Shown: positions 34,607 to 64,000 of the stretch, piece after piece
Position numbering within the stretch: position 1 is the stretch's first letter
Layout: each line of letters opens with the position of its first letter
NCBI GenBank assembly: GCA_963804165.1
Contig: CAWDPO010000045.1
Span: forward strand, 32,001 to 96,000
Source of the DNA: an uncultured delta proteobacterium
GTDB taxonomy: Bacteria; Desulfobacterota; Binatia; UBA9968
DNA: 64,000 nt
Direction of reading: 5' to 3'
Position numbers and translations under genes: made by a program
Notes under the pieces: generated by a model
The model's input: the letters and a program-made list of their open reading frames with translations, nothing else
Database searches by the model: none
What the model was told of the DNA's origin: nothing

Positions 34607-34751
34607 TTCTTGGGTGACAGGAACTCCCGTCATCTAATGAAACCGCAGGGAATTCGTGAGAGAATTCGATTCGACGGTGATCTTCGGCGTCGGAATTTGC
34701 CCATGCAGGAAAATCATCGCTTCGTATTTCTCACGATGTGAAATATTTTGA

Positions 34752-34792
34752 TTGACGACAAGCACGTTGCAAATCTCCGTGCTTGTCGTCAA
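34752..34792. repeat. perfect 15-bp inverted repeat with 11-nt spacer
   Basis: TTGACGACAAGCACG ... CGTGCTTGTCGTCAA. Confidence 0.85.
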
Positions 34793-34897
34793 ATATGGGT
34801 TGGATCAGGGTGACAAAGACAAGAAACCTTGCCGAATCAGGCAGGTTAAACTCACGGGCTTTCTGAGGCAGGGGTTTTCAAAGAAAGGGGAAAATTC

Positions 34898-35134
34898 ATG
34901 AAGCTTGGATTATTCGCTATTCTGTTGCTCTTGACGGCGTGCGTCCCCCCGCGTCCCAACCCATCAGGCCAATATGACAGCAAGGGTGCGCCTTTATCCA
35001 ATGAAAGCAGACCCGCGAACACCCTCAGCCGGGACGCCTCCGACTGCGAGCGCCAAGCCGCAATATCTGCCGGCGTCGGCAATAGAGCGGAAGTTTTCAA
35101 TAACTGCATGAAAGCTAGACGTACTCCGAACTGA
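34898..35134 (+). CDS. small lipoprotein
   Basis: lipobox LTAC; D..DC...FNNCM.A disulfide-like pair. Confidence 0.75.
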   Translation: MKLGLFAILLLLTACVPPRPNPSGQYDSKGAPLSNESRPANTLSRDASDCERQAAISAGVGNRAEVFNNCMKARRTPN

Positions 35135-35260
35135 TCCGCCTTCACGATAATCCACGCACTATGAATCAATACAGAGAGATGAAGTTAGACAGTCTGGGGC
35201 CCCGCTTTGGTGACGAACTCTTGGTTGCGCCGCGCCTTTTTCGGACTGAAGCAACCCTGA

Positions 35261-35488
35261 TCAGTGCTCGTCGATCCACGTCTGCGCCATGAGCACAGCA
35301 AACTCATCCGCTTCACGTTGCGTGCAATAAGCGTGATTGAATTGATATTGATGCGAGGGGTATTCCATCTTTTGGGTCGCGGCTTCCTGATGTGTCACGG
35401 TATATTGTGGCACCCAGGTGCCATTTTTTTCGCGCTGGAACGATTCGCTGCGAATCACATAGTCTTTGTACGAAGTATCCTGTTTCAT
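35261..35488 (-). CDS. small hypothetical protein, paralog-like to 39440-39682
   Basis: YKDYVI...WVP...EADEFAVLMAQTWID pattern. Confidence 0.65.
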   Translation of the reverse strand: MKQDTSYKDYVIRSESFQREKNGTWVPQYTVTHQEAATQKMEYPSHQYQFNHAYCTQREADEFAVLMAQTWIDEH

Positions 35489-35574
35489 GTTCGCCGACAC
35501 TCTGACTTTGTTCAAGCAGGGCAGTCACCCATCGGCACGCGCCTATTGGAGAGTTATCTGATTTCCTCAATACG

Positions 35575-35748
35575 TTATAAAATCGGAAGCGCCGAGCGAA
35601 TTTCCGACTCCGCCGTCGGCTGATTGCCTTCTTGCGAGCTGTCGGGAGATTTCGCCTTTTCGTTACGCCGCTCAATTTTGCGTGCCGCCTTTTTCTGTTG
35701 CTTTTCCTTGCGCGCCCAAGCCTTTTGGCGCTTCTTAAAGGTTTCCAT
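35575..35748 (-). CDS. 57-aa basic small protein (not in ORF track)
   Basis: AGGAGG RBS; METFKKRQKAWARKEKQQKKAARKIERR... Confidence 0.7.
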   Translation of the reverse strand: METFKKRQKAWARKEKQQKKAARKIERRNEKAKSPDSSQEGNQPTAESEIRSALPIL

Positions 35749-36196
35749 AATCTCCTCCTACGGCTAAAGGTTTGTTGAAGACACCGAGAGGCGATACCCG
35801 CTGGAACCACCTCTTAAAACTCAATCAAGTTTGGCCCGAAGATGCGTTAGTCGGACTTTGGAATGAGGACGGTTAGTCCATAAGAGTATAGCAGAGTATG
35901 TGGGTAAAGATAGCCCGCGCGGACTTTGGCTGGAGTCCCCTCGTCCCGTGGTGTAAAGCGTGACCTGCGATTTCCTCTAGTTCATCGCCTTGCCCTACAA
36001 TCGGATCGCAAACTACGTGTATTAAATAATTCCATCGGCAAGTAATGCTTGGGCAGTGACATACCGCGAGGGCGCTCGACTATTACAACCCGCCGGTGTC
36101 CTGATGGGCGTCATAGTTCTTAAAAGAATACGAACTCGGCGGGATATCTCGTTCGGGCCGTCTCGTGCTCTCACGTGGACCTGGACCTCAGCGGTA

Positions 36197-36427
36197 TTAG
36201 GGCGACGTTTTGACACCAACTACTACCAACACGATCCCACTTACCAGCGCCAATCCGCCCAAGAACGGCGAGACCGCAAGAGTCTGCTTGGCATCGGTAC
36301 GAGTTTGAAGGCCCGTGGTGTCGACGGTCTTCTCGTAGCTTGTGTCGCTGCCCCCTTGATAAGAAAAAGCCACGATGCCGAGAAGGATGAGGGCGATACC
36401 GACGTGTATTATTGGTTTAGTATTCAC
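36197..36427 (-). CDS. DUF3185-like small two-TM protein, paralog of 60994-61224
   Basis: VGIALILLGIVAFSYQG...SPFLGGLALVSGIVLVVVG; GTG start. Confidence 0.75.
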   Translation of the reverse strand: MNTKPIIHVGIALILLGIVAFSYQGGSDTSYEKTVDTTGLQTRTDAKQTLAVSPFLGGLALVSGIVLVVVGVKTSP

Positions 36428-36704
36428 AAAAACCTCTCTCTCTTTCAGCAAAACCGAAACGGCTGAACAACTCTGGACTGCCGAATACGATTGATCCCTA
36501 TCTCCGGGAGAGCGCAAGCCACAATTACATGAATCATCCCGATAACCAACGTATAGGAACCAAAAATTTAGAGCCCCATGACCAAAGGCTTCGCGAAGAT
36601 CGCCCAAGACACGACACCAATTTCAACCAGTCTTTTCTGAAGGACCTAGGATTCTATCCAGGTTCAGAACCCCTCTTACGATCCGCTGAATCGAAAGGAA
36701 TTGC

Positions 36705-36720
36705 CGTCCAAAACTAGACA
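36705..36720. promoter_or_regulatory. YGTCY-N6-RGACR palindrome (putative Crp-family box A)
   Basis: CGTCC-AAAACT-AGACA. Confidence 0.6.
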
Positions 36721-36765
36721 ATTTTGAAAAGAAATGTCGCGCTGCGTGCGAGCGGCTTCCGTGCT

Positions 36766-37455
36766 CTACGCAATCTGCGCCAAGTAATCGGTGAGTTTCT
36801 TTTCTTTGATGATGAGAAAACGATCCTTGTTGGTCTCGATCAGACCAAGGTTATGGAAGCGCTGCATGAACAAGCTGATCCTTGGCCGCGTCGTGCCCAC
36901 CATCTCGGAGAGTTCTTCATGGGAAATCTTCAGCTCAATGCGGATGCTACGCGGGTCCTTCTTGCCCATGGAGCGGGCCAACTGCAACAACGTCCGGCCC
37001 AGCCGCTGTTCGCTATCCACCGTCACGAGATTAGCGATCACCTGCTGCTGGTCGGCAATCCGCACCGCCAGGTAGCGCACGAAACCCTCGAACAACGAGT
37101 CGCGGCTTAGACGCCCCAAGAATTGAGAGCAAGGAATCTGCTTCAGCATCGTTTGCTTCATCGCCGTCGCCGTTTCGAGGCGCGTGCCTAAGCCGGACAG
37201 GCATAGCTCACCGAAAACGTCTCCCGGACCCTGAATGGCCAGCAGGCACTCTTTGCCGTCGGACGACAGCATGAGCAGCTTGATCTGGCCGCTTTCAACA
37301 AAATAGACCATCTCGTCTTGATCGCCGCACGTATATACGTTCGCGTGTCGAGCGATCTTGACGGCGCGAGTATTCAGGGTCTCGCGCACTAGCGAATCAC
37401 GTAGTTGTTGTTTGAACTCGTCGGCTTGAGGAGTCTGTTGAATCGCCATCATCAT
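36766..37455 (-). CDS. Crp/Fnr family transcriptional regulator
   Basis: cNMP-type barrel (SGQIKL, FGELCL, RLETA); HTH HEELSEMVGTTRPRISLF. Confidence 0.93.
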   Translation of the reverse strand: MMMAIQQTPQADEFKQQLRDSLVRETLNTRAVKIARHANVYTCGDQDEMVYFVESGQIKLLMLSSDGKECLLAIQGPGDVFGELCLSGLGTRLETATAMKQTMLKQIPCSQFLGRLSRDSLFEGFVRYLAVRIADQQQVIANLVTVDSEQRLGRTLLQLARSMGKKDPRSIRIELKISHEELSEMVGTTRPRISLFMQRFHNLGLIETNKDRFLIIKEKKLTDYLAQIA

Positions 37456-37746
37456 GTCTCCTATCGATGCCCACGATGAAAACAACGACGGTCGACTTTC
37501 CTGGGGCGCTCGTTCGGTTATCCTTCGGCGAAGAACCTCCGCGGTTGACGGGCACCTATGAGACTATCGCGCGGCTGGCGCCGTGTCCAGGGGGGATGCT
37601 GTCCAATGCTTGAGCTGTTTCCGTATGTACCACAGCAAACTAAGCTGGTTAATCTAAGCTGGTCAATCCAAATTGCGGTGACCAAATTAGATTTGAGAGG
37701 AGTGAGCACGCTCCACAAGAGAGCCCTCCAACTGTTTTTGAACTAT

Positions 37747-39210
37747 TTATGACTCCTTTGGTTCGTAGGCAACGACGCGGTCACCGCCGGCCTGCTTGGC
37801 CGCATACATGGCATTGTCAGCCGCGTGGAGTAATTCAGCAGCCGTGGAACCGTGTTCAGGCGCATCGGCAACGCCAGCCGATACAGTGATCGCGCCTGGC
37901 GTCGAGAACCCGTGCCGAATCTGCTTTTCTTTAACCAGCACGCGGATTTGTTCCACGCGTTGATGGGTGTCCGCGAGCGATGAATCGGGCAGCACGAGGA
38001 CAAACTCATCGCCGCCATAGCGGCACGAGATATCGCTCTTGCGCAGCTTTTCACGCAGCGCTTGCGCCAACTCGCGTAACATCGAGTCGCCGGCGTCGTG
38101 GCCGAAGGTATCGTTGAACGGCTTAAAGTTATCGAGGTCGAGCATCACGACGCAGAGCGGCGAGTTGCCACGCCGCGCTCGATGCAGCTCGCGCGCTAGA
38201 TTCTCTTCCAAATAGCGCCGATTGCATAGCCCGGTCAGAGGATCATGGGTAGCCTGTTCGCGCAGCTCCTCCCGTAGTTTCAAATTATACAAAGACAGCT
38301 TGATCGTTTCGCCCACCGCCACGGCCAGTTGTTGCCTCGTGACCGAACCGATAAGTTTTCCTGCCGCGCCGGTGAGACACAACAGTCCGGTTGCTCCGCT
38401 CTTGACTATCAAAGGTACACACAAATAGCCGGCCTGGGGTTGATGGACAAAGTGATGACACAGCAAATCCACCCGGGGATCGATGACTTCATGCAATTGA
38501 CCGCGCCGTATCGCCCAACAGTCCTCCAATGAAAAGGGGGACTTTAGCGGTGACTCGTTGCCCCAATGGGCAACCTTCTCCAAGTGTTGATTCCGGCCGC
38601 CCGAAATAGCTAATCCGCCACTGTCCTCGGTAAATAATTCATTCGCCATCAGGCCAACCACCTGGTAGGCCTCGGCCTGGGTGGTGCACGATTGAAGCAG
38701 ATCGTTTAGGCGGATGAGCGACTTCATTTCCTCGTCACGCCTTTGTAGTTCAGCCACCGAAGCCCTCAACTCGTCATTGACCTTCCGTATACCCTCCTCG
38801 GCCTGTTTGCGGGCAGTAATGTCGCGGACGTTGCACTGGATCACGCGCCAGCCGTCGACCAGGTAGACATTGCTGACGAACTCCACCTGGATTTGTTGTC
38901 CGGCTTTGGTTTCCAACGGCAGGTTCTCGTAACGGATGTATTCCTTTTTCTGCAAGTCGCGCATGGCGTCCTGGCTCGCGGCAATATCTTTGACTGGACC
39001 GATCTCCCAGAGCGCCTTGCCGATTAACTCGGTGTGAGAATATCCCAGCATGTCTTGCAGGAACGGGTTGACGTCGGTGACCCGTCCCGTGTCCGCATCC
39101 AGGAGGAGAATACCGTCCTTAGCCGTCTCGAAGAGGCGCCGGTAGCGAAGTTCGGAAGCTCGCGACTGCTCCCGCGTGAGCGTGGCGCCATTGTCGGTGT
39201 TATCATCCAT
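37747..39210 (-). CDS. PAS-GAF-GGDEF diguanylate cyclase
   Basis: PAS ending RDIT; DPLTGLCNRR, DLDNFK.FNDTFGH, RYGGDEF; RKSD I-site. Confidence 0.93.
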   Translation of the reverse strand: MDDNTDNGATLTREQSRASELRYRRLFETAKDGILLLDADTGRVTDVNPFLQDMLGYSHTELIGKALWEIGPVKDIAASQDAMRDLQKKEYIRYENLPLETKAGQQIQVEFVSNVYLVDGWRVIQCNVRDITARKQAEEGIRKVNDELRASVAELQRRDEEMKSLIRLNDLLQSCTTQAEAYQVVGLMANELFTEDSGGLAISGGRNQHLEKVAHWGNESPLKSPFSLEDCWAIRRGQLHEVIDPRVDLLCHHFVHQPQAGYLCVPLIVKSGATGLLCLTGAAGKLIGSVTRQQLAVAVGETIKLSLYNLKLREELREQATHDPLTGLCNRRYLEENLARELHRARRGNSPLCVVMLDLDNFKPFNDTFGHDAGDSMLRELAQALREKLRKSDISCRYGGDEFVLVLPDSSLADTHQRVEQIRVLVKEKQIRHGFSTPGAITVSAGVADAPEHGSTAAELLHAADNAMYAAKQAGGDRVVAYEPKES

Positions 39211-39318: not shown

Positions 39319-39334
39319 TGTCTAATATTGGACA
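39319..39334. promoter_or_regulatory. putative Crp-family box B
   Basis: TGTCT-AATATT-GGACA; minus-strand GATAAT at 39296-39291 (centre about -42.5). Confidence 0.75.
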
Positions 39335-39699: not shown

Positions 39700-41157
39700 C
39701 TAGCCCACGCTGCCTTCGAGACTGACGCCTAGAAGCTTCTGGGCCTCCACGGCAAACTCCATCGGCAGCTCGCGAAACACCTGCTTGCAGAAACCATTGA
39801 CGATCAGCGTTACCGCATCCTCCGGCGAAATACCGCGCTGTCTGCAATAAAAAAGCTGATCTTCGCCGATCTTCGAGGTCGAAGCCTCGTGCTCCACCTG
39901 CGAGGAACTGTTCATGACTTCGAGATAAGGGAAAGTATGCGCGCCGCACTTATCGCCCAGCAGCAACGAGTCACACTGAGAATAATTGCGTGCGCCGGTA
40001 GCGCCCTTCATCACTTTCACGAGCCCCCGATAGGTGTTTTGCCCGTGTCCCGCGGAGATTCCCTTCGAAATGATCGTGCTCTTGGTATTTTTCCCGATGT
40101 GGATCATCTTGGTGCCCGTATCCGCCTGCTGATAGTTGTTGGTGAGTGCCACCGAGTAAAACTCCCCAACCGAGTTGTCACCCCGCAGGATGCAGCTCGG
40201 ATATTTCCAGGTGATCGCCGAGCCGGTCTCTACCTGCGTCCAAGAAATCTTGGAGTTGATTCCCACACACTTGCCCCGCTTGGTGACAAAATTGTAGATC
40301 CCGCCCTTGCCGTCCTTGTCGCCGGGATACCAGTTCTGCACCGTCGAGTACTTGATCTGTGCGTTGTCGAGAGCAACAAGTTCCACGACCGCGGCATGCA
40401 GCTGGTTCTCATCCCGCATCGGCGCGGTGCAGCCTTCGAGATAACTTACGTAGCTACCCTCATCGGCAACGATCAACGTGCGCTCAAATTGGCCTGTCTC
40501 GGCGGCATTGATGCGAAAGTAAGTCGATAGCTCCATCGGGCATCGCACACCTTTGGGGACGTAAACGAAGGAACCGTCACTGAAGACAGCTGCGTTCAAG
40601 GCCGCGAAGAAGTTGTCGCTGTAGGGCACCACCGAGCCGAGATATTTTTTCACCAGCACGGGATGTTTCTGCAGCGCCTCGGAAAAGGAACAAAAGATGA
40701 TCCCCAACGCTCCCAGCTTTTCCTTGAACGTCGTCGCCACCGACACGCTGTCGAAGACCGCATCGACCGCCACGCCGGTGAGCCACTTTTGCTCGGACAA
40801 TGGAATACCGAGCTTCTCATAAGTTTCGAGCAGCTTGGGGTCGACCTCGTCGAGGCTTTTTAGCCCCGCGTTTGTCTTCGGCGCCGAATAGTAGATGAGG
40901 TCCTGGTAGTCGATCGGCGGATAGTGAACGTTGGCCCACTTGGGTTCTGCCTGCGACTTTGCCAGCTTCTCCCAGTGCCGGTAGGCCTTCAGGCGCCAGT
41001 CCAGCATGAAGTTCGGCTCGTTCTTCTTGCCGGAAATCAAGCGAACGATTTCCTTGTTGAGCCCGCGAGGCACCGTGTCGGTCTCGATGTCGGTGACAAA
41101 CCCGTACTTATACTCCCGGCTGAGAAGCTCCTGCGGGTTGTATGTGGAAGTGTTCAT
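39700..41157 (-). CDS. sufB: Fe-S cluster assembly protein SufB
   Basis: [44 protein letters not shown]. Confidence 0.97.
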
Positions 41158-41329
41158 GGCTTTACCTTTGCCTTCCTCTGAGAACAGATTCTTGATTGGC
41201 TCAATTCGGCGAGAATTCACTCGTCCATCTCCAAAAAATGACCTGGCCGAAGTGTTCTCTGTGTAAGATCGAGCCCAGCGCCTCCGGGCAGTTAGCAGAA
41301 GACCCTTCTCGCCTCCGAATTGGGAAGAA

Positions 41330-41656
41330 TCAACTAGAACCAACCGCGCTGGCAGCGATCTGGTGCGAGGTCGAATTGCCGACCTCAAAGATCTCCACTT
41401 TGGGAGTGCCTTCAATCACCCTCGACAGGGCGCGCAAAATCTCAGGATAGGTCTTCTGGTTGTAGACTTCCGCGTCCTCTTTTTTATTCCAGAGACTGAT
41501 CGTCAATGCCTCATTACGATCCGCAGCGACAAAACTAATCGCATCGTCAAATCCTCTTTGCCTTCTGAGCAAGGGAATGACCTCTCCCTCAAGAATCTTC
41601 GTAAACTCCACCGCGCTCTTCGCCTTGAGTTTAAAACTCACGTTTCGGCTATACAT
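41330..41656 (-). CDS. dimeric alpha-beta barrel (ABM-like) small protein
   Basis: [10 protein letters not shown]...[13 protein letters not shown] pattern; AGGGAGG RBS. Confidence 0.7.
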
Positions 41657-42343: not shown

Positions 42344-42359
42344 CGTCTAATATTGGACA
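42344..42359. promoter_or_regulatory. putative Crp-family box C
   Basis: CGTCT-AATATT-GGACA; minus-strand TAGATT at 42322-42317 (centre -41.5). Confidence 0.78.
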
Positions 42360-42554: not shown

Positions 42555-42986
42555 ATGGCGTCGCACGATTGGGATTTCTTGATTTGGCATCGAGCTAACG
42601 ATCTGCTGCAGCAAGCAGGGCGGATCCATAGGAACTTTTTGCAAATAGCAGCCGGCGCTCACTATCGGGCATCTCCTGGTAGATCGCCAAGTTGGGAACC
42701 TCCCGTTAACGTCGTTGAGACTGATGAGAGCCTTTGGGTGATTTCGGCCATCGCGGGAATGGCAGCCGAGCGAGTAGATGTACGGCTGGAGGGACGCGAA
42801 CTTATCATTGCGGGCGTACGCCCGCTGCCAGATTGCTGCTCTGACGGGGAATTAAAGGTATGGGAAATCCCGCTCGGCCGCTTTGAGCGGCGACTCAGGC
42901 TCGTGCCAAGCGAACAAGCTCTATCGGTAGGAGAAATTTCTTTTCGAGACGGCCTGCTGATCATCGAGCTAAGGAAACATGCATGA
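42555..42986 (+). CDS. Hsp20/alpha-crystallin family protein
   Basis: WEPPVNVVET, L.I.G.R, EIPLGRFERRL, DGLLIIEL. Confidence 0.88.
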   Translation: MASHDWDFLIWHRANDLLQQAGRIHRNFLQIAAGAHYRASPGRSPSWEPPVNVVETDESLWVISAIAGMAAERVDVRLEGRELIIAGVRPLPDCCSDGELKVWEIPLGRFERRLRLVPSEQALSVGEISFRDGLLIIELRKHA

Positions 42987-46722: not shown

Positions 46723-46738
46723 TGTCTAATATTGGACG
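46723..46738. promoter_or_regulatory. putative Crp-family box D
   Basis: TGTCT-AATATT-GGACG; minus-strand TAGGGT at 46701-46696 (centre -41.5). Confidence 0.78.
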
Positions 46739-50873: not shown

Positions 50874-50912
50874 GGATGAAATGATTATAGTCACGATTGC
50901 TTGCTAATATGC

Positions 50913-51952: not shown

Positions 51953-51967
51953 GCAACTGTTGTGCCG
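51953..51967 (-). promoter_or_regulatory. sigma54 promoter P1
   Basis: CGGCAC-AACAG-TTGC. Confidence 0.8.
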
Positions 51968-52126: not shown

Positions 52127-52342
52127 TCAAGCCGGCTGATCTTCAAGCCGAAAGCCGAGCTTGACAGTAACCTGAAATTCCTTGACTTTGTCCTTATCAA
52201 CCAGCCCGCGCATTTCAGTCACCTCGAACCAGTCGACATGGCGTAGTGACTGACAAGCCTTCGCCACGGCGTTTTGGGTGGCTTCGCCAAAGCTGGTCTC
52301 AGAGATGCCGACGATTTCAATTTTCTTGTAAGTCCGTTCCAT
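52127..52342 (-). CDS. dodecin (flavin-binding)
   Basis: YKKIEIVGIS, WFEVTEMRG, FQVTVKLGF. Confidence 0.93.
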   Translation of the reverse strand: MERTYKKIEIVGISETSFGEATQNAVAKACQSLRHVDWFEVTEMRGLVDKDKVKEFQVTVKLGFRLEDQPA

Positions 52343-53054: not shown

Positions 53055-53729
53055 TCACGCCAATTTCCTCAAAGCGTTGATTCTCTCTTCGGTTCCCGGG
53101 TGTGTAGATAAGAAACCACCACCACTGTCCCCTCCCGAGGTCCGCGTCAGCCAGGTCAGCGTGTCGATCATTACCTCTTTGGAATGACCGGCTCGACGCA
53201 AGATCTCGACACCGTGACGGTCCGCTTCCAACTCCTCTGAGCGGCTGTAGCTGTTTGCAATGAGCGCCCCCGCGATCGGGGTCACCGCGCTACTGCCCGG
53301 TATGAGCTGTTCGAGCAGAATTACGCCGATGTTGAGACCTGTACCCAAAGTCTGTGCTCTGGCCACGTGGCCAAGATCATCGTGAGCAATCTCGTGCGCC
53401 AGCACGCCTCTCAATTGCTCGTCGTTGGCCTTTGCAAGCAGCCCGGTCGTGACTTGAAACTCGCCGCCTCCCGCATTGGCGGCGTTGATGTTTGGATCGT
53501 CAATTACCCGAACTCGTATTTCATTTGAACGGCGCGGGTTAGTCGTCGCGCGCAGCAGCGGCAGCATGATCCGCTGCACTCGCTCCGTCTGCCTCGGATC
53601 GAGCGGACGGCCGGCCGAAGAGCGCGGTGTTTGTTGTGGGGCTGGCCCTCGCGATGAACTGGTCTCCAGCACGCAACCCGTTGTCGCCGTGGCGAGAATC
53701 AAAACTGCTATCATTCGAAGGAATCTCAT
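53055..53729 (-). CDS. M48 family metallopeptidase lipoprotein
   Basis: TGC lipobox; INAA, LAHEIAH, YSRSEELEAD, LSTHP. Confidence 0.9.
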   Translation of the reverse strand: MRFLRMIAVLILATATTGCVLETSSSRGPAPQQTPRSSAGRPLDPRQTERVQRIMLPLLRATTNPRRSNEIRVRVIDDPNINAANAGGGEFQVTTGLLAKANDEQLRGVLAHEIAHDDLGHVARAQTLGTGLNIGVILLEQLIPGSSAVTPIAGALIANSYSRSEELEADRHGVEILRRAGHSKEVMIDTLTWLTRTSGGDSGGGFLSTHPGTEERINALRKLA

Positions 53730-53912: not shown

Positions 53913-53928
53913 CGTCCAGTATTAGACA
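53913..53928. promoter_or_regulatory. putative Crp-family box E
   Basis: CGTCC-AGTATT-AGACA; minus-strand TAGGTT at 53891-53886 (centre -41.5). Confidence 0.78.
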
Positions 53929-54349: not shown

Positions 54350-54364
54350 GCAGGTTGTGTGCCA
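54350..54364 (-). promoter_or_regulatory. sigma54 promoter P2
   Basis: TGGCAC-ACAAC-CTGC. Confidence 0.8.
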
Positions 54365-56421: not shown

Positions 56422-56450
56422 ACCTCAGGAGTGAAACCCTATGCCTTAAA
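56422..56450. repeat. 29-bp direct repeat copy 1 (probable promoter)
   Basis: ACCTCAGGAGTGAAACCCTATGCCTTAAA; 28/29 identical to 63393-63421. Confidence 0.8.
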
Positions 56451-56680: not shown

Positions 56681-56695
56681 GCAGCTTACGTGCCA
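56681..56695 (-). promoter_or_regulatory. sigma54 promoter P3
   Basis: TGGCAC-GTAAG-CTGC. Confidence 0.8.
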
Positions 56696-58468: not shown

Positions 58469-58484
58469 AGTTCATTATTGGACA
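58469..58484. promoter_or_regulatory. putative Crp-family box F (imperfect)
   Basis: AGTTC-ATTATT-GGACA; minus-strand TATCCT at 58448-58443 (centre about -40.5). Confidence 0.6.
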
Positions 58485-58799: not shown

Positions 58800-59459
58800 C
58801 TAACCCGTGATGATGTAGTCGAACTGTTCCTGGACTTTCTTCCAGTTCACCACGTGCCACCAATGAGTAATGTATTCGGGTCGCTTGTTGTGGTACTTGA
58901 GATAATACGCGTGTTCCCAAACATCGAGACCTAAAATGGGCAGCTGGCCGTTTGATAACGGATTATTCTGGTTCGCCGTTGAGCCAATCTCCAAGTCCCC
59001 CGTGGACGTCACGGAAAGCCACGCCCATCCGCTGCCCGAGCGATTTTTGGCAGCGGTGTCGAACTCTTCTTTGAATTTAGCGAATCCGCCAAACGTCTTT
59101 GTAATCGCCCGTGCCAGCTTGCCCTCGGGCTCATCGCCGCCCCGTGGCGTCATGTATTCCCAGAATAACGCGTGATTGAGGTGTCCGCCGCCGTTGCGTT
59201 GCAATGGCGTCCTGATATCGGCAGGCAACTCGTTAAGATGAGCCAATAGGGTCACGAGATCTGTTTTCTGCAGCTCAGGATATTTGCCGACCGCTTCGTT
59301 GGCTTGATCGACATAAGTCTGATGATGCTTGTCATGATGCAAATGCATCGTTTGTTCGTCGATGTGCGGCTCGAGCGCATCATACGCATAATCGAGCGCT
59401 GGCAGGGTATACGGATAATCCATATGCGCCGTTTGATAGAGCAAGAGTTTGTTGTTCAT
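58800..59459 (-). CDS. sodA: superoxide dismutase, Fe/Mn family (Mn-type signature)
   Basis: LHHDKHH, NGGGHLNH, GSGWAWL, DVWEHAYY. Confidence 0.93.
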   Translation of the reverse strand: MNNKLLLYQTAHMDYPYTLPALDYAYDALEPHIDEQTMHLHHDKHHQTYVDQANEAVGKYPELQKTDLVTLLAHLNELPADIRTPLQRNGGGHLNHALFWEYMTPRGGDEPEGKLARAITKTFGGFAKFKEEFDTAAKNRSGSGWAWLSVTSTGDLEIGSTANQNNPLSNGQLPILGLDVWEHAYYLKYHNKRPEYITHWWHVVNWKKVQEQFDYIITG

Positions 59460-59574: not shown

Positions 59575-60795
59575 TTACGTTGAAACATGGCGAGCTCGAA
59601 CCGGTAGTTCCCGGCTAACCCGCGGCACTGATGGCTCTCGACTGCATGCCCGGTCGAAGCTCTGCAGGTAGCGGCGCGCGACCGCGGGCCAGACCATGCT
59701 GCGGCCGTGAGCGGCGGCGCGTGCGCAGAGGGCCGATCGTTTGGCATCATCGCTCAGGAGATCCACGACCTCGCGTGCGATGGTTTGGGAGTCTCTCCAC
59801 GGCACGAGGATACCGCGCCCGTCGGCGAGGAGTTCGCGCGCATAAAGATAAGGCGTGGAGATGACGGCTTTGCCGGATCCTACCGCGTAGGCCAACGTCC
59901 CGGACGTGCTCTGCTCAGGCTTGAGGTACGGCGTTACATAGATATCGGCGGCGGAGAGAAACTTGACGAGTTCGCCGCGGCTCACGAAACGATTGTGAAA
60001 GATCATGCTGGATTCCACGCCGAGCCCTTGAGCCCGACGCTCCAGACTTTCGCGGTAGTTTTCGCCGTATTGCTCTTTGATATGTGGATGGGTAGCTCCG
60101 AGCACGACGTAGACCGTGTCCGGGTATTGCGCAAGAATCGCGGGCAGCGCGTCGATGACATGCTCGATACCTTTGTCCGGCGATAGCAGGCCGAATGTAA
60201 AAATCACCGACTTGCCTTCGATCCCGAGCTCTTTCTTAGTGCTTGAAGCGAACGGCACGCTCGGAATCCCGTGCGGGATGATATCGATTTTCTGCTCGGG
60301 TACGCCGTGAACATTATGGAGGAGAGCGGCGCCGTGGGCGCTCATGACGACGAGCCGCCGCGAAAGTCGGGCGATCTCATTCATCGCTCGACGCTGCATG
60401 GAATCCGGCTCGCCGAGGATGGTGTGCACGGTGGTCACGATCGGCATGCGCAATCTGCGCAGGAGCGTGAGCAGGTAGCTACCGGCGTTGCCGCCGAAGA
60501 TACCGTACTCGTGCTGCACGGACACGACATCGATCTTGTTGGCGTTCAAATAATCCGCTGCGACGCGGTACGACGCAATATCACTCTCGGCCACCTCGAA
60601 GCGGACCCGCGGCGGATACGCATAACGTTTGCCGGCGTCGTTCATCGCGACCACGAAGCAATCGGCATTCGAGACCTCCGCCGCCACCGCTCTGCTGAGA
60701 TCGGTGGTAAAAGTAGCGATGCCGCATTGGCGCGGCAAGTGATTGCCAAGGATCGCGATTCGACGAACCGTTCCCGCGATGGTTCCGTGGTTCAT
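59575..60795 (-). CDS. glycosyltransferase family 4
   Basis: PRQCGIATFT, QHEYGIFGG, FGLLSPDKGIE, SGTLAYAVG. Confidence 0.9.
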   Translation of the reverse strand: MNHGTIAGTVRRIAILGNHLPRQCGIATFTTDLSRAVAAEVSNADCFVVAMNDAGKRYAYPPRVRFEVAESDIASYRVAADYLNANKIDVVSVQHEYGIFGGNAGSYLLTLLRRLRMPIVTTVHTILGEPDSMQRRAMNEIARLSRRLVVMSAHGAALLHNVHGVPEQKIDIIPHGIPSVPFASSTKKELGIEGKSVIFTFGLLSPDKGIEHVIDALPAILAQYPDTVYVVLGATHPHIKEQYGENYRESLERRAQGLGVESSMIFHNRFVSRGELVKFLSAADIYVTPYLKPEQSTSGTLAYAVGSGKAVISTPYLYARELLADGRGILVPWRDSQTIAREVVDLLSDDAKRSALCARAAAHGRSMVWPAVARRYLQSFDRACSREPSVPRVSRELPVRARHVST

Positions 60796-60993
60796 GATTC
60801 CTCCCACCGGAGAAGTCTCGCGATCAGATCCGTCCCCTGATCATCTGTATTCCAAGCAAAATCGCGACGAGTACGACTCCGAGTATTAAAAACAAGCTCG
60901 CCATATCAATTTCCTCCTAACCCACTTATTAGAAATTGATCCGCGGTCATTTTCACCACGACATTGCGGTGCTGTGCGGCCTCTCAAGCGCCG

Positions 60994-61452: not shown

Positions 61453-61755
61453 CTAGCCCCCCAGGTTTTCTCGCCTGTTTTCCTGATAGCCCTGCTTTTC
61501 GGCTTCCGTTGAGTGATCGACCGAATCGGAGCTCTTGCAATCCATGAGCTTCTTTCCCTGTTGCACGATCACGTCGGCAGTCTCGCGCAGCTTGCCTGCC
61601 TGCTGATTCAGGTAGTCCAGACTTTTACCGCCGCGTTCACGGAGCACCTCGCGCGTCTCTTTACGGCCGAGAATCGCGGCCATTAACCCGCCGACGGCTC
61701 CCAGACCTAGACCGATAAGTAAGTACGAAAATTTCGATTCGCCGTTCGTTGCCAT
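61453..61755 (-). CDS. YtxH-like general stress protein
   Basis: LIGLGLGAVGGLMAAIL..KETRE.L followed by helical tail. Confidence 0.8.
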   Translation of the reverse strand: MATNGESKFSYLLIGLGLGAVGGLMAAILGRKETREVLRERGGKSLDYLNQQAGKLRETADVIVQQGKKLMDCKSSDSVDHSTEAEKQGYQENRRENLGG

Positions 61756-61799: not shown

Positions 61800-62111
61800 C
61801 TAACGCTTGATAACTTGCAGATTGTTGACTACCCGTTTGACGCCGCTCACCTGCGACGAAACCGATCCGATGTGGGACTTCTGCTCGCCGGTCTCGACTT
61901 CGCCGGTGAGATAGACAATGCCGTTATTGGTCTCGACTCCCACTCGCGACAGGGTGACAAGCTTGTCTGTAGCAAGTTTAGTCTTTACGGACGAAGTAAG
62001 AGCTCCATCATCGAGGTTTTGTCCCATGGTCTCGCCGGTCATCGCCTGGCAACCGCTCATGAAAAAAAGAACTACCAACGTACCTGCCAACATTTTAAAT
62101 TTCCGGATCAT
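61800..62111 (-). CDS. BON domain lipoprotein (OsmY-like)
   Basis: lipobox MSGC; DDGALTSSVKTKL, VET.NGIVYLTG, GVKRVVNNL. Confidence 0.92.
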   Translation of the reverse strand: MIRKFKMLAGTLVVLFFMSGCQAMTGETMGQNLDDGALTSSVKTKLATDKLVTLSRVGVETNNGIVYLTGEVETGEQKSHIGSVSSQVSGVKRVVNNLQVIKR

Positions 62112-62397: not shown

Positions 62398-62462
62398 CGA
62401 ACTCTCCTTTTGCCGCAACGCTTCCCTGTGGATCGGCTCGAGCATCCCGATCAGCAAACCCG

Positions 62463-63089
62463 CTAGCGATTGTCCCGGAGAAAACTCTCTAGCTCGAATC
62501 GGTCGCGACTCGTGAACCGCCCTTCGACTCTGATGTAGTCACCGGCCCGCAGCGCGCGAAAACGATCCACGTCCGACCGCCGCGCATTGTTTGGCAAAGA
62601 AACAAAAAGACTCTGTCTGGACTGATCGCTCAATTCGAACGAGCTCTGCTGAAAGTTTACATGCTCCACTCTGCCATCGAGTGTTTGCATCGCCGTTGGC
62701 GGTTGACCGGCAGCGCCACGATCCGGATTCCGATCCCTTATACTTTCGTGGACGCGCACGAGATCCGTATACGAGTTGCCGCGTGAGTCCTGCCTCAGCT
62801 GCATGGAGACCTTATCGCCGCTCTCCAATTGGGCGACCGGATAGTCTCGGCCGCGATAAAGCGCACGGGCCTCAGTGCTATAACCGACCACCCGCTTGCG
62901 GCTGTCGTTCGGTCGCAAATGAATCTCCCGAGACGAAGTATCTATTCGGTCGATCTCTGCGAAGAGCTCGTCTTGATCCAATTGCAGCGTAGGTCTGCCC
63001 ACCAGGGCGATGTTGTCGCTGCAACCTGCGCTCATCGTCAACGCCAAACCGAGAATCACACAGGACGCCGCACGATTGAATGGATTCAT
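62463..63089 (-). CDS. lipoprotein with two OB-fold-like repeats
   Basis: SAGC lipobox; LESGDKV and LRAGDYIRVEG. Confidence 0.75.
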   Translation of the reverse strand: MNPFNRAASCVILGLALTMSAGCSDNIALVGRPTLQLDQDELFAEIDRIDTSSREIHLRPNDSRKRVVGYSTEARALYRGRDYPVAQLESGDKVSMQLRQDSRGNSYTDLVRVHESIRDRNPDRGAAGQPPTAMQTLDGRVEHVNFQQSSFELSDQSRQSLFVSLPNNARRSDVDRFRALRAGDYIRVEGRFTSRDRFELESFLRDNR

Positions 63090-63099
63090 AATTTTGCTC

Positions 63100-63327
63100 C
63101 TAATAAAGGATCGACCCTTTTTCTAGCTGCGATTTACGAGTTTCGTATTCTTTGCGGGATATTCTCTCGGCTTTGTAATCATCCTCGAGCTGGTTCATCT
63201 TGCTATGGGCGTTGATTTCGTAACCAGCGCTTGTGCCCAGGGCTCCCACCGCCGCTCCGCCCAAGAACGCACAGCCGCTTTGACTGACACCGATCAAAAG
63301 CACTAACACCAACATTAACTTTTTCAT
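63100..63327 (-). CDS. small glycine-zipper lipoprotein
   Basis: SGC lipobox; GGAAVGALG; AAGGAGG RBS. Confidence 0.8.
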   Translation of the reverse strand: MKKLMLVLVLLIGVSQSGCAFLGGAAVGALGTSAGYEINAHSKMNQLEDDYKAERISRKEYETRKSQLEKGSILY

Positions 63328-63392
63328 CGCAACCTCCTTGGGTTGGACTGAGTAGGAGGGTTAAGTCAGGCTTACTTGAAGAATTTCAAGCG

Positions 63393-63421
63393 ACCTCAGG
63401 TGTGAAACCCTATGCCTTAAA
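63393..63421. repeat. 29-bp direct repeat copy 2 (probable promoter)
   Basis: ACCTCAGGTGTGAAACCCTATGCCTTAAA. Confidence 0.8.
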
Positions 63422-63547
63422 CATCTTGAACGATACGCTGACGAGTTAGAGAGTACTGTCTAAAAAGAGACCAATTAAAAAAGAAATGTCTTGAGGCCGG
63501 GACTTTTGCTCAAGGGGCTTTTCCACCGATATCTCTGGCCATATTTG

Positions 63548-63694
63548 CTACAATTTCTTCTTCACGGCCTCGGCCGCGTCCTGAGTCTTTTCGCCCGCCC
63601 GCTCAACGTCCTGGCCGAAACCGCGCACCGTGTTGCAAGCCACGTTCGTGCCTAACAGGACCAACATCAGTGTTGCGAAGATTATCGGGCGCAT
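63548..63694 (-). CDS. entericidin A/B family lipoprotein
   Basis: VACNTVRGFGQDVERAGE. Confidence 0.92.
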   Translation of the reverse strand: MRPIIFATLMLVLLGTNVACNTVRGFGQDVERAGEKTQDAAEAVKKKL

Positions 63695-63741
63695 GGCGTA
63701 TCTCCTATTTGGATTCAACTTTCTAACACCAATCATGTGGA

Positions 63742-63756
63742 GCACTTTCTGTGCCT
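63742..63756 (-). promoter_or_regulatory. sigma54 promoter P4
   Basis: AGGCAC-AGAAA-GTGC. Confidence 0.75.
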
Positions 63757-63839
63757 GATTTTGCGATGAGGAAAAGGCTGTGTTTCCGCTAGCTTCCCGA
63801 GACTGTCTGACGGAAACGAAGAAACGGCTCGTTAAAAGC

Positions 63840-63864
63840 GTCGAAACTCTCGACCAAAGGGTCG
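63840..63864. promoter_or_regulatory. putative bEBP enhancer copy 4
   Basis: GTCGA-AACTC-TCGACC-AAAG-GGTCG. Confidence 0.8.
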
Positions 63865-64000
63865 GCCTAAACTACGTGAACGATGGATTGAAACGACAAG
63901 ATTACGGCTGCAACCATGACTGTGCGAGACTATTTTTCGAACGAACTTCTGAGATGCCACACGAGGGCAGGTACGGCTATGTCGGCTTTTAGCGGATCAA

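Follow-up and report, generated by a model that had tools for sequence, protein, structure and literature searches.

Gene content of the island

The DNA analysed here, hereafter the window, is a stretch of 64,000 nucleotides from an uncultured Binatia-type soil bacterium, whose assembly is a 7.5-Mb MAG that is 81% complete. The gene map of the window contains a stress island of around 40 genes (Table 1), about 38 of which are on the minus strand, and the island continues beyond the window edge; ORFs shorter than ca. 60 aa were included on the basis of coding score and conservation only. In all, the island is predicted to exceed 50 kb and to be made up of envelope and stress-protection genes. 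The initial annotation had described about 40 co-oriented genes, and this number holds, although not the full co-orientation, because hsp20 and lon are on the plus strand.

Pfam searches bore out the minus-strand stress families proposed initially (BON, entericidin, DUF3309, SOD, ferritin-like and dodecin), as well as the kinase-bEBP pair, the two Crp paralogs and the diguanylate cyclase. Hsp20 (22 bits, for a cut-off of 20.8) and Lon were likewise found by Pfam, but on the plus strand; the YtxH match fell below the cut-off, and profile searches of the window did not confirm any lmo0937-like gene. Many small proteins of the island have no family assigned in Pfam or NCBIfam. The real start of the entericidin gene is probably at 63694, giving 63551..63694.

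The first gene of the sensor operon encodes an OmpA-like protein with an N-terminal domain of ca. 85 aa, followed first by a collagen-like GXY stretch and then by OmpA_C; the N-terminal domain is also present in the first gene of the operon of family f2 (BLASTP E 2e-15). As deduced from hydropathy, the kinase contains a periplasmic domain of ca. 280 aa between two TM segments, and its best NCBIfam matches are ZraS/AtoS, whereas those of the bEBP, which contains GAFTGA and a Walker A motif, are AtoC/ZraR, all of them below their cut-offs. Orthologs of this bEBP are 67-88% identical, and its paralogs 48% at most. In sister families the sensor operon includes degP, which suggests that the system originally answered to envelope stress; for the same reason, the signal is probably damage to the envelope or to periplasmic proteins.

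Table 1. Genes and regulatory elements in the window (positions are those of the window).
Feature	Position	Strand	Basis or remark
Crp-type box, just 3' of crp1	36705..36720	-	3 mismatches; T-rich upstream flank
crp1, Crp/Fnr	36769..37485	-	Pfam
PAS-GGDEF cyclase	37750..39210	-	Pfam + sequence; GGDEF motif intact, RxxD I-site
Crp-type box, before PAS-GGDEF + crp1	39319..39334	-	0 mismatches
sufB, stands alone	39703..41415	-	above NCBIfam cut-off
Crp-type box	42344..42359	-	1 mismatch; orthologous promoter conserved in G012, G024, G018
hsp20 + lon	42555..45394	+	Pfam; sole plus-strand genes of the stretch
Crp-type box	46723..46738	-	1 mismatch
Ferritin-like/rubrerythrin-like protein	46926..47459	-	Pfam
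NtrC-type bEBP	47725..49143	-	Pfam; REC, AAA+ with GAFTGA, HTH_8
Histidine kinase	49119..50894	-	Pfam, hydropathy
Secreted OmpA-like protein	51010..51909	-	Pfam + sequence
Sigma-54 -24/-12 element of P1 (CGGCACAACAGTTGC)	51953..51967	-	107 nt after UAS start
UAS of P1	52051..52074	-	exact match to GACCNTTTGGTCGAN{5,7}TCGAC
Dodecin	52130..52342	-	Pfam
M48 peptidase lipoprotein	53058..53729	-	Pfam
Crp-type box, before M48 peptidase, 196-aa protein, dodecin	53913..53928	-	2 mismatches
Zinc-ribbon-like peptide, 46 aa, first gene after P2	54153..54290	-
Sigma-54 element of P2 (TGGCACACAACCTGC)	54350..54364	-	pattern scan
UAS of P2	54447..54470	-	pattern scan
crp2, Crp/Fnr paralog, second gene after P3	55685..56362	-	Pfam
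DUF3309 membrane peptide, first gene after P3	56488..56634	-	Pfam
Sigma-54 element of P3 (TGGCACGTAAGCTGC)	56681..56695	-	pattern scan
UAS of P3	56779..56802	-	pattern scan
Q/K/E-rich low-complexity secreted protein, 389 aa	57180..58346	-	ORF + sequence inspection
Crp-type box, before the 389-aa protein	58469..58484	-	3 mismatches; -10 at +20
Fe/Mn superoxide dismutase (Fe/Mn-SOD)	58803..59459	-	Pfam
GT4 glycosyltransferase	59578..60807	-	Pfam
YtxH-like	61456..61755	-	Pfam, weak (23.1 bits; cut-off 37.5)
BON-domain lipoprotein	61803..62111	-	Pfam
Lipoprotein, 75 aa	63103..63327	-	conserved leader of ca. 90 nt
Crp-type box, before lipoprotein/BON/YtxH/GT/SOD run	63457..63472	-	4 mismatches to strict consensus; -10 at +21
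Entericidin-type lipoprotein, first gene after P4	63551..63745	-	Pfam, NCBIfam
Sigma-54 element of P4 (AGGCACAGAAAGTGC)	63742..63756	-	pattern scan
UAS of P4	63840..63863	-	pattern scan

An enhancer and sigma-54 promoter module

The first motif is a three-half-site enhancer, TCGAC-N6-GTCGA-N5-TCGAC, situated 106-109 nt before a sigma-54 promoter, GGCAC-N5-TGC. Across the 7.5-Mb assembly this module appears in exactly eight copies, which are confined to 24 kb and of which four fall inside the window. The pattern GAC[CT]NTTTGGTCG retrieves 13 matches in 7.5 Mb, including eight on the minus strand of contig C45, from 84074 to 107449, each of which is followed by a sigma-54 element 106-109 nt downstream. 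A loose scan for the module yielded nine other matches, all with three-mismatch enhancers, which equals the number estimated by chance. The specificity of the motif derives from the pairing of the sigma-54 element with the enhancer; by itself, the loose sigma-54 consensus shows no enrichment in the window (54 matches versus 67 expected). Past the -12 element, an ORF for a protein of 24-60 aa or for a secreted protein begins after 37-59 nt in seven of the eight modules. The assembly contains rpoN (441.9 bits, for a cut-off of 277).

As initially claimed, P1 lies upstream of ompA-kinase-bEBP. P3 is also upstream of crp2, but not with two genes in between: it directly precedes DUF3309, and crp2 is thus the second gene of the unit and not the third. 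Motifs, spacings and placement before regulator genes all recur in related genomes. Indeed, the spacing of 106-109 nt is kept in 26 further modules from loci of six congeners, and three families of the order retain the module ahead of the kinase-bEBP operon: it precedes the bEBP-ortholog operon in G004, G014, G015, G018 and G019 and in family f2 (G027 and G029), and family f3 (G026 and G037) has it with variant half-sites. The assembly contains at least 15 bEBP paralogs, so the assignment of the enhancer to the local bEBP, its putative binder, relies on position and on the conserved autoregulation.

A Crp-type box and its putative regulators

The second motif is the palindrome TGTCYAATATTRGACA, with 34 sites at up to two mismatches against two in the reversed genome; both motifs are thus far beyond chance, in agreement with the recurrence at fixed promoter positions noted initially. 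A TAnnnT -10 box is found 20-22 nt after the palindrome in 25 of the 34 sites (background 3.6%; p 3e-29), which puts its centre at -41.5, and the palindrome spans -49 to -34. Box promoters show a T-rich flank upstream, at about -55 to -62, and no recognisable -35 hexamer, with CAGCAA or similar from -35 to -30, so they should be weak without help. One orthologous promoter shows no variation between the box and the -10 box, both included, and its flanks vary. The island is poor in canonical -35/-10 promoters (four found versus 9.7 expected). Three of the seven boxes in the window have three or four mismatches, and both PAS-GGDEF genes sit behind box promoters. The predicted Crp regulon extends genome-wide.

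The assembly encodes four Crp-type HTH proteins, three of them crp1/crp2/crp3-type paralogs. The crp1 and crp2 products are 83% identical and have the same recognition helix (TTRPRISFF in crp2), whose RPRISF differs from the RETVGR of CRP, which fits the changed half-site. Among 41 relatives, box and Crp paralog coexist in 17, four contain only the box, one only the Crp and 19 neither, the corresponding figures for 70 family genomes being 22, 4, 24 and 20; these tallies include the unpublished genomes G005 and G062, and dropping both shifts each count by one at most. The exact box was found in 10 of the 14 genera with a Crp paralog and in none of the seven without it, although related genomes are not independent and association tests therefore overstate the case.

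Both motifs are also linked to the crp genes. In 12 genomes from four genera (G000, G002, G003, G014, G015, G018, G019, G051, G054, G057, G065 and G066) the enhancer module is found no more than 1.5 kb upstream of a crp2-type gene and points in the same direction, and a box promoter precedes a crp1-type gene in G000, G003, G012, G015, G019 and four more genomes. DUF3309 and crp2 are separated by 125 nt that hold a conserved leader remnant and could contain a promoter for crp2 itself; a simple scan detected no terminator-like site in this spacer. A contig from an RNA library of a relative covers DUF3309, a 647-nt insert and the start of crp2, which is at most a weak hint of such a link; these RNA runs are soil-library contigs, mostly 90-95% alike, and may contain DNA.

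A putative two-tier cascade

From the motifs, their numbers, spacings and conservation, and from the co-occurrence of box and Crp paralog, we infer the binding partners, the direction of regulation and the nature of the signal. We consider it somewhat probable that the island is under a two-tier cascade, from kinase to bEBP/sigma-54, to Crp2 and to class II promoters; comparative genomics supports this wiring, which the initial annotation had already outlined. In the first tier, the kinase would phosphorylate the NtrC-type bEBP, which would then bind the enhancer, centred ca. 125 nt before the start site, and open the eight sigma-54 promoters within 24 kb, including that of its own operon, in a positive autoregulation. 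These promoters would drive membrane or secreted peptides of 24-60 aa (DUF3309, entericidin and others), together with CsbD, ferritin-like and PBP genes and crp2. In the second tier Crp2, probably with its paralogs Crp1 and Crp3, would bind the palindrome centred at -41.5, Crp2 and Crp1 being candidate binders of TGTCCAATATTGGACA, and Crp2 would serve as a class II activator at ca. 35 sigma-70-type promoters lacking a -35 box, in the island and elsewhere. Its predicted targets are genes for BON, YtxH-like, SOD, glycosyltransferase, M48 peptidase, dodecin, Q-rich secreted and Usp proteins, both PAS-GGDEF cyclases and crp1, the latter implying a positive feedback. Crp2 most likely acts through its amount and not through cAMP.

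It is conceivable, but rather doubtful, that this is the true general stress response of the lineage, with sigma-54 and Crp replacing RpoS, SigB or EcfG as master switch. The name "general stress" is drawn from gene content, which matches known regulons in CsbD, BON, YtxH-like, entericidin, Dps/ferritin-like, SOD, Usp and Hsp20; likewise, the check for stress sigma factors suggested initially gave no rpoS or sigB profile match over cut-off, and the sole PhyR_sigma2 match was a 207-aa frame with 29.5 bits. However, in a MAG that is 81% complete an absent sigma factor proves little, and a sensor with one periplasmic input domain, together with degP in the operon of sister families, suggests one class of signal.

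We find it unlikely that two separate regulons share the island, with crp2 transcribed from its own promoter or the palindrome read by another factor, and no cascade. The box does occur without a close Crp paralog in G004, G011, G024 and G052, and in G004, which is in 10 contigs, crp2 is missing from the region where synteny would place it; but these exceptions are MAGs 87-92% complete, and for the 21 box-bearing genomes of the 41 relatives, summed incompleteness leads one to expect that ca. 2.5 genes are missing. Similarly, enhancer module and box with a -10 are both absent from the upstream sequence (2.2-3 kb each) of seven among 16 crp genes in other genomes, although the modules do precede crp2-type genes across the four genera. 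The DUF3309-crp2 spacer and the many small proteins without a family would also suit separate regulons; against them, the box is restricted to genera with a paralog, and its shape and position are typical of sites for Crp-family activators.

Very improbable is that the palindrome is a repressor operator released under stress, with CIRCE/HrcA logic: perfect palindromes with high conservation often serve as operators and this one overlaps the place of a would-be -35 box, but these promoters show no recognisable -35 hexamer and so should be weak without help, their -10 spacing has a rigidity that activation needs and repression does not, and a centre at -41.5 with a T-rich stretch at the expected alpha-CTD site is the textbook class II layout of CRP and FNR.

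Comparison with known systems

The putative cascade shares output gene families with the RpoS, SigB and EcfG/PhyR responses; these, however, operate by sigma replacement with partner switching or proteolysis, whereas the island would use activators with sigma-54 and sigma-70. In the Rrp2-RpoN-RpoS pathway of Borrelia burgdorferi, sigma-54 and a bEBP likewise switch on a second global regulator, at the level of transcription, and this regulator in turn runs a stress and adaptation regulon, but that second tier is a sigma factor and not, as proposed here, a Crp-family activator. Two effector-independent regulators of the Crp/Fnr type, SdrP in Thermus and DdrI in Deinococcus, govern stress genes without binding cAMP; as far as the cited account goes, SdrP does so through its changing concentration (PMC12040651). 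In contrast to what is proposed for the island, the same portion of that account describes no sigma-54 input for them, and their sequences are distant from the island Crp, SdrP (PDB 2ZCW) being a weak match (E 2.2e-5).

In ZraPSR from E. coli and Salmonella, according to the sections cited, a periplasm-sensing kinase is paired with a sigma-54 response regulator that, under envelope stress, turns on both its own operon and a periplasmic accessory protein (PMC4987338). The top NCBIfam matches include ZraS and ZraR, and the first gene of the island operon also encodes a periplasmic protein; nevertheless, the scores fall well short of the equivalog cut-offs (255.8 versus 479 for ZraS and 442.7 versus 760 for ZraR), the island periplasmic domain is unmatched to ZraS, with only residues 239-582 aligning, and the predicted regulon is much larger and has a second tier.

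The Mrp module from Myxococcus xanthus consists, in the portions of the literature cited, of the kinase MrpA, the bEBP MrpB, the sigma-54 promoter of mrpC and the Crp-family MrpC (PMC4320627, PMC10701913); MrpC has c-di-GMP enzymes under its control as well and exerts feedback on the module (PMC4320627, PMC10701913, PMC8844925). The initial term "undescribed" was thus too strong, because this precedent matches the putative cascade in its three protein families, in their order and in its logic. In both, as far as these sources describe Mrp, the kinase gene stands together with that of a receiver-bEBP, and the bEBP works, or is predicted to work, through the upstream activating sequences ahead of a sigma-54 promoter that drives a Crp-family gene; the large regulon of MrpC is reached through an imperfect palindrome, TGTY-N8-RAC, which the TGTC-N8-GACA of the island box fits. 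On the other hand, the island bEBP would have eight promoters and direct autoregulation, for a single known target of the Mrp bEBP in those sources, Crp2 lacks the TTSS motif of the N-terminal extension of MrpC, and in five Myxococcota genomes the top Crp homologs reach 23-33% identity and carry STRETVS instead of RPRISF. The targets also differ, being developmental genes in the Mrp descriptions cited and small stress and envelope proteins in the island, which suggests that a two-step wiring familiar from Myxococcus development is here attached to stress genes.

Gene content of the stress island

The genome studied is a MAG of 7.5 Mb in 46 contigs, with 55.8% G+C, 81% completeness and 5% contamination, and the window covers C45:32001-96000. 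A near homolog of the island Crp (P0104, 89% identity) is named 'Candidatus Binatia bacterium' at NCBI, and we take the organism to be an uncultured, Binatia-type bacterium of soil. A Pfam scan of ORFs of at least 32 aa between 34.4 and 64 kb (144 on the minus strand and 57 selected ones on the plus strand) recovered the named stress families, the kinase-bEBP pair, the two Crp paralogs and the diguanylate cyclase of the initial annotation (see the table below). Other minus-strand genes with Pfam support encode SufB, a ferritin-like protein, dodecin, an M48 peptidase, a LapA-domain protein, DUF3309, an Fe/Mn-SOD, a GT4 glycosyltransferase, BON and entericidin. YtxH was found only as a weak match (23.1 bits against a Pfam cut-off of 37.5), and the lmo0937-like gene was not confirmed by the Pfam and NCBIfam searches of the island ORFs. 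The count of about 40 genes stands once small ORFs are added by coding score and start-site context, and about 38 of these lie on the minus strand; the common orientation claimed for all of them does not extend to hsp20 and lon, which lie on the plus strand. Among the island proteins without a family, several are secreted or lie in the membrane, such as a 389-aa Q/K/E-rich protein, and Rfam searches of 33000-64000 returned no match beyond one sRNA at chance level (E 0.6).

Several individual genes deserve mention. The sufB gene, which scores over its NCBIfam cut-off, stands alone, without adjoining sufC or sufD, behind small ORFs and a copy of the palindromic box described below; its 571-aa ORF is extended N-terminally by ca. 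90 aa, perhaps through a mis-called start. One receiver-domain ORF covers its profile only in part, continues into unrelated sequence overlapping the lon stop, and is probably a truncated or frameshifted response regulator. The 389-aa protein consists mostly of Q/K/E/R repeats with a Tyr/Arg/Asp-rich C-terminus, has no family match, is kept in relatives (65% identity in G015, a congener) and resembles hydrophilin-like protective proteins. Directly before the island lie genes for a MacB-type ABC transporter (ABC_tran, MacB_PCD and FtsX) and an outer-membrane efflux protein, in a stretch of 0.61-0.62 G+C versus 0.52-0.56 in the island.

The island extends at least 25 kb past the window end on the same contig, C45 (loci L001 and L002). 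This part contains four further enhancer-sigma54 promoters, at least nine further box sites, two CsbD genes, genes for a ferritin-like protein, a low-affinity iron permease, a class A PBP and a second PAS-GAF-GGDEF protein, a CsbD-MlaC fusion and, behind a box, a divergent peptidase/FGase/transglutaminase operon.

Features of the island and associated loci (window positions, unless a contig is named)
Feature	Position	Strand	Basis or remark
Crp/Fnr gene crp1	36769-37485	-	Pfam
Crp/Fnr gene crp2	55685-56362	-	Pfam
PAS-GGDEF cyclase	37750-39210	-	Pfam; GGDEF and RxxD I-site retained
NtrC-type bEBP	47725-49143	-	Pfam; overlaps the histidine kinase gene
Histidine kinase	49119-50894	-	Pfam; ~280-aa periplasmic domain between two membrane segments
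OmpA-like gene	51010-51909	-	Pfam; ahead of the kinase
sufB	39703-41415	-	NCBIfam, 916 bits
Box before sufB	42344		
Receiver-domain ORF	45336-45668	-	profile positions 2-73 of 111
389-aa secreted protein	57180-58346	-	
Transporter and efflux genes	31229-34518	+	Pfam domains
Lipoprotein-gene leader	63328-63428	-	~90 nt conserved
Lipoprotein-gene leader	56363-56450	-	truncated copy, between DUF3309 and crp2
crp3	C43:127503-128165	+	outside the island
Island past window end	C45:96001-121600		
Four enhancers (UAS) past window end	C45 96768, 98533, 103255, 107449		
Second box-promoter cluster	C2:247800-258400; C24:87000-91000		
Three almost identical box promoters	C2 253075, 254249, 258323		no convincing downstream ORF

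Enhancer-sigma54 modules

Inspection of the upstream regions in the island disclosed a repeated CGACCnTTTGGTCGA, followed by TCGAC. The derived pattern GAC[CT]NTTTGGTCG has 13 matches genome-wide, eight of them on the minus strand of C45, within 84074-107449 of the contig. A looser scan returned 3670 enhancer-like sites (up to three mismatches), 17 of which have a sigma-54 element 95-120 nt downstream; the eight with at most one mismatch are the C45 sites, and the other nine all have three mismatches, the same number as expected by chance (3670 x 26 positions x 9.5e-5). The first of the two motifs for which fixed promoter positions had been claimed is thus found genome-wide as eight modules of constant geometry, all on C45: in every one, 106-109 nt separate the enhancer from the GG of the -24 element, and GG at -24, GC at -12 and the TGGCAC-N5-TTGC spacing are present. 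The enhancer itself, TCGAC-N6-GTCGA-N5-TCGAC, consists of two palindromes that overlap, and a fourth, weaker half-site lies beyond them. The loose sigma-54 consensus alone showed no enrichment in the window (54 matches versus 67 expected).

The four modules in the window precede the ompA-kinase-bEBP genes (P1), a 46-aa zinc-ribbon peptide (P2), DUF3309 and crp2 (P3), and entericidin (P4), and those past its end precede small membrane peptides, the two CsbD genes, the ferritin-like gene and the class A PBP gene. The first ORF begins 37-59 nt past the -12 element in seven of the eight modules.

The genome contains rpoN (TIGR02395, 441.9 bits; cut-off, 277.35), and the island bEBP shows the features of an NtrC-type activator, with receiver, AAA+ and Fis-type HTH domains in Pfam, GESGTGK at residue 173 and GAFTGA at residue 220. 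The nearest NCBIfam families are ZraS and AtoS for the kinase and AtoC and ZraR for the bEBP, all far below the equivalog cut-offs (ZraS, 255.8/479; AtoS, 245/646; AtoC, 540.4/714; ZraR, 442.7/760). A search for related loci found only generic NtrC-type relatives of the bEBP, from many phyla, at most 56% identical and without synteny. A predicted complex between the periplasmic domain of the kinase and the N-terminal domain of the OmpA-like protein scored 0.00, which has no bearing on binding either way.

Conservation and origin of the sensor operon

The strict enhancer pattern occurs in 11 of 41 genomes of the order, including the one studied: seven of 24 congeners, three of five genomes of the sister family f2 and none of 11 of the sister family f3; in the reversed control, every genome gave zero matches. 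The loci of six congeners hold 26 more modules at 106-109 nt and one more at 66 nt. Orthologs of the bEBP, 67-88% identical (paralogs reach at most 48%), are present in 10 of the 24 congeners, four of the five f2 genomes and all 11 f3 genomes. In G004, G015 and G019, and in G027 and G029 from f2, the ortholog is preceded by a module at a distance of about 2.9-3.6 kb; likewise, a module with variant half-sites (GGTTCGAC repeats) lies upstream of it in G026 and G037, from f3. Conservation in related genomes therefore holds for the enhancer-sigma54 module before the bEBP operon, which is kept in three families, and outside the genus the strict pattern was seen only as this autoregulatory copy. 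There are at least 15 bEBP paralogs in the assembly, and it is mainly because self-control is conserved across three families that we assign the enhancer to the local bEBP and not to one of them. Together, these sequence comparisons make it highly likely that the modules form a sigma-54 tier governed by this bEBP.

In the sister families, the autoregulated sigma-54 operon (loci L107 in G029, L108 in G027, L110 in G026 and L111 in G037) carries a gene for DegP/HtrA, or for a periplasmic protein of Gly/His/Met-rich type, before those of the kinase and the bEBP. The order is DegP/HtrA, kinase, bEBP in f3, and Gly/His/Met-rich protein, DegP, kinase, bEBP in G027; the DegP/HtrA protein has a Trypsin_2 and two PDZ domains, and the C-terminal domain of the small G027 protein is a homolog of the N-terminal domain of the OmpA-like protein (36% identity, E 2e-15). 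This gene content suggests an envelope-stress origin, and by analogy the ancestral unit looks like an envelope protein-quality response of the kind of ZraPSR, an envelope-stress system (as outlined in part of PMC4987338).

A palindromic box in class II position

The second motif, the palindromic box TGTCYAATATTRGACA, has eight exact, 18 one-mismatch and eight two-mismatch copies in the genome, against 0, 0 and 2 in the reversed sequence, so that the genome-wide scan leaves 34 sites against two. Boxes with three mismatches are equally frequent in both (22 and 22), and we treat this class as noise. Sixteen box sites of any class lie on C45, at 68.7-121.5 kb, and others cluster on contigs C2/C24, C12 and C34. 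The window holds seven, all oriented for minus-strand genes, although three of these have 3-4 mismatches and rest partly on their flanking context. Oriented boxes share a T-rich TTcTTTtCAA upstream and GcAAtCc downstream.

Of the 34 sites that have at most two mismatches, 25 show a TAnnnT beginning 20-22 nt past the box, mostly 21, against a background of 3.6% at random positions (binomial p 3e-29). If its T is placed at -12, the box runs from -49 to -34, with its centre at -41.5 relative to this predicted -10 box, and there is no -35 hexamer; measured in this way, the 25 sites have a class II Crp/Fnr layout. Such a layout, with the site centred around -41.5 in place of the -35 box, is known for CRP and FNR. 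Across four genomes, the orthologous promoter before sufB keeps the sequence from box to -10 box unchanged while its flanks drift. Canonical sigma-70 promoters with -35 and -10 elements are scarce between 47 and 64 kb (4 versus 9.7 +/- 3.7 in shuffles), which fits an island run by activator-dependent promoters.

Genes downstream of the boxes, for which the first ORF was chosen by an automatic and noisy procedure, include in the island the cyclase-crp1 genes, M48-dodecin, the Q-rich protein and a lipoprotein-BON-YtxH-GT-SOD run, and elsewhere a tandem Usp, a second cyclase, a response regulator and a kinase. In the second cluster of box promoters, near-identical stretches are common to contigs C2 and C24, perhaps as a result of strain heterogeneity or of a duplication in the MAG; three promoters there that hardly differ from one another, without a convincing downstream ORF, might drive small RNAs or tiny peptides.

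Two other readings of the box fared less well. GlrR-type bEBPs bind a comparable palindrome (TGTC-N10-GACA, in a table of PMC4987338), but no GG-N10-GC element follows the boxes, and this reading was rejected. An ECF-type promoter (AAC ... CGTT) was dropped because TAnnnT is what the promoters have in common and a palindrome points to a reader that is a dimer.

We also rejected a repeated AAGGCATAGGGTTTCAC element as a promoter motif, since it proved to be a leader ahead of a small lipoprotein gene. This conserved leader, also found in loci L103, L104, L115 and L116, precedes MKKL... lipoprotein genes and comprises AAGGCATAGGGTTTCAC..., a hairpin inside it (GGTTACTTGAA/TTCAAGTAAGCC) and, opposite the AGGAGG ribosome site, a CCTCCT stretch; RNAalifold predicts a nested hairpin with one compensatory pair only, and Rfam gave no match for it. 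A truncated copy lies between DUF3309 and crp2, where relatives carry a lipoprotein gene.

Crp paralogs as candidate readers of the box

Only four proteins in the assembly exceed the Pfam cut-off for a Crp-type HTH, three of them paralogs with 75-83% identity: Crp1 and Crp2, from the island, and Crp3, from contig C43. Crp3 is 75% identical and has the same recognition helix; no enhancer module or good box was found on C43. Both island paralogs belong to the Crp/Fnr superfamily, with a cNMP-binding-type domain and a C-terminal HTH_Crp_2. Their best PDB matches are GlxR, mycobacterial CRP and CooA, and the nearest NCBIfam families, PtrA, NtcA and CRP, are far below their equivalog cut-offs (for cAMP-CRP, 54.8-56.4 bits against 266); likewise, a protein atlas search with Crp2 returned only generic Crp/Fnr clusters. 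The recognition helix reads TTRPRIS(F/L)FMQRF, in contrast to RETVGR in E. coli-type CRPs, so a changed half-site is expected, and alignment places ARHE in the cyclic-nucleotide pocket instead of the PRTS of mycobacterial CRP, which makes cAMP binding doubtful. Both the R-E-x-x-x-R helix pattern and the R-[ST] phosphate-binding pair of E. coli-type cAMP-CRP are thus missing.

The box and the paralogs tend to occur together. With up to one mismatch allowed, 17 of 41 genomes have both the box and a close Crp paralog, one has only the paralog (G013), four have only the box (G001, G004, G011 and G024) and 19 have neither, including all 16 outside the family. For the exact box in 70 family genomes (at least 85% complete, plus the one studied), the figures are 22 with both, four with the box only, 24 with Crp only and 20 with neither; by genus, 10 of the 14 that have the paralog also have the box, and none of the seven that lack it does. 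Fisher tests give p 0.018 for genomes and 0.004 for genera, values flattered by the non-independence of kin. These tallies and the relatives' loci used include two unpublished genomes, G005 and G062, on which no conclusion hangs.

The box-only genomes bear on whether another protein reads the box. They are 65-92% complete, and summed incompleteness predicts about 2.5 such cases among 21 box-bearing genomes. G004 is a real worry: in only 10 contigs, it has six boxes with full promoter context, and its sole Crp-like protein is 24% identical, with helix RQQVTE. Weighing layout, superfamily and co-occurrence, we consider it likely that the Crp paralogs act as class II activators at the box.

A possible link between the two tiers

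Downstream of P3, DUF3309 and crp2 are separated by 125 nt in which a simple scan found no terminator-like site. A co-directional module also lies 0.2-1.5 kb upstream of crp2-type genes in G002, G003, G014, G015, G018 and G019, and the same holds for five of 16 further crp genes across the family (in G051, G054, G057, G065 and G066); counting the genome studied, such genes span four genera. Within 2.2-3 kb upstream, the remaining genes of that sample have a box promoter only (4/16) or neither (7/16). A box promoter precedes the crp1-type copy in the genome studied (via the cyclase gene), G003, G012, G015 and G019. Sigma-54 control of crp2 thus appears reasonably probable from gene arrangement. 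Sigma-54 would then make Crp2, which would in turn activate crp1 and a second wave of genes; in several operons a sigma-54 promoter and a box promoter stand in tandem (P2 and the M48 box, P4 and the lipoprotein box, the sigma-54 promoter first in each), which would amount to feed-forward control. On balance, we lean slightly towards the whole cascade, from signal through kinase, bEBP/sigma-54 and Crp2 to the class II promoters of stress and envelope genes, as the best reading.

Copies from relatives turn up in public RNA libraries, and we draw nothing further from this, as neither starts nor strands nor single transcripts can be read from contigs of such libraries, in which some DNA may occur. 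Eleven soil or sediment runs carry 5-7% of sampled words of 52-59 kb, and four runs from four studies gave contigs, mostly 90-95% alike and hence from relatives, over small shares of the stretch. The genes on which they fall are those for dodecin, a 196-aa protein, the zinc-ribbon peptide, Crp2, DUF3309, the Q-rich protein and SOD. In one contig, DUF3309 and the start of crp2 are connected through an insert of 647 nt, which matches the extra lipoprotein gene found at this place in G003, G015 and G019. Just upstream of P2 and P3 (54340-54807 and 56680-57147), these coarsely binned RNA runs, taken by themselves, show no or almost no contig cover, which we do not take as evidence on start sites.

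Implications and comparison with known circuits

Overall, the motifs, regulators and stress island of the initial annotation are confirmed and more sharply defined. Neither RpoS (TIGR02394) nor SigB (TIGR02941) gave a match above its cut-off in this MAG, which has three RpoD-like genes only, though at 81% completeness their genes may have been missed; the one PhyR_sigma2 match (29.5 bits) lies in a 207-aa frame, too short for PhyR with a receiver domain, and is probably an ECF sigma factor. It is conceivable, if rather unlikely, that in this family of Binatia an ancestral envelope-stress system (degP-kinase-bEBP, sigma-54) expanded, was coupled to a diverged, probably ligand-independent Crp and became the master switch of general stress and dormancy in this lineage, in the role of RpoS, SigB or EcfG, with PAS-GGDEF cyclases closing a c-di-GMP loop.

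Gene regulation is almost unstudied in Binatia, a widespread and uncultured soil lineage, and no study of stress regulation in Binatia, Binatota or Desulfobacterota_B was among the papers listed by a full-text literature search. Two motifs with fixed geometry, their likely reader proteins and a gene list are now in hand, so the whole circuit could be rebuilt in E. coli without culturing the organism. The comparison also illustrates regulon growth over evolutionary time, from a single autoregulated degP-kinase-bEBP operon in the sister families to eight sigma-54 promoters and a Crp tier here, and the many membrane peptides of 24-75 aa that immediately follow strong regulated promoters lend themselves well to work on what small stress proteins do.

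Among known circuits, the Borrelia Rrp2-RpoN-RpoS cascade is one analogue. SdrP and DdrI are Crp-family stress regulators that act without cAMP, SdrP through its amount (from parts of PMC12040651). A close likeness is with Myxococcus xanthus, in which, according to portions of PMC4320627 and PMC10701913, the kinase gene mrpA and the receiver-bEBP gene mrpB share a transcript, MrpB drives mrpC by binding to two UAS of its sigma-54 promoter, and MrpC, a Crp-family dimer, recognises TGTY-N8-RAC at hundreds of promoters, with feedback on mrpAB as well as on itself; it also directly controls a diguanylate cyclase and a phosphodiesterase (in part of PMC8844925). The box consensus TGTCYAATATTRGACA fits this MrpC motif (as given in part of PMC4320627), and a crp-family gene lies, by sequence, behind a sigma-54 promoter with bEBP sites at P3 and in 11 other genomes. 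There are also differences: Crp2 lacks the TTSS motif of the MrpC N-terminal extension (described in part of 10.1101/737593), and in five Myxococcota genomes even the best Crp homologs reach only 23-33% identity and have a different helix. We thus do not file the island circuit as a member of the Mrp module, although it would work like it, with the same three-family logic. Elsewhere, a cascade from bEBP to Crp is known in the development of Myxococcus (portions of PMC4320627 and PMC10701913), and the island would extend it to stress protection, as a variant within a kind of circuit that is already known.
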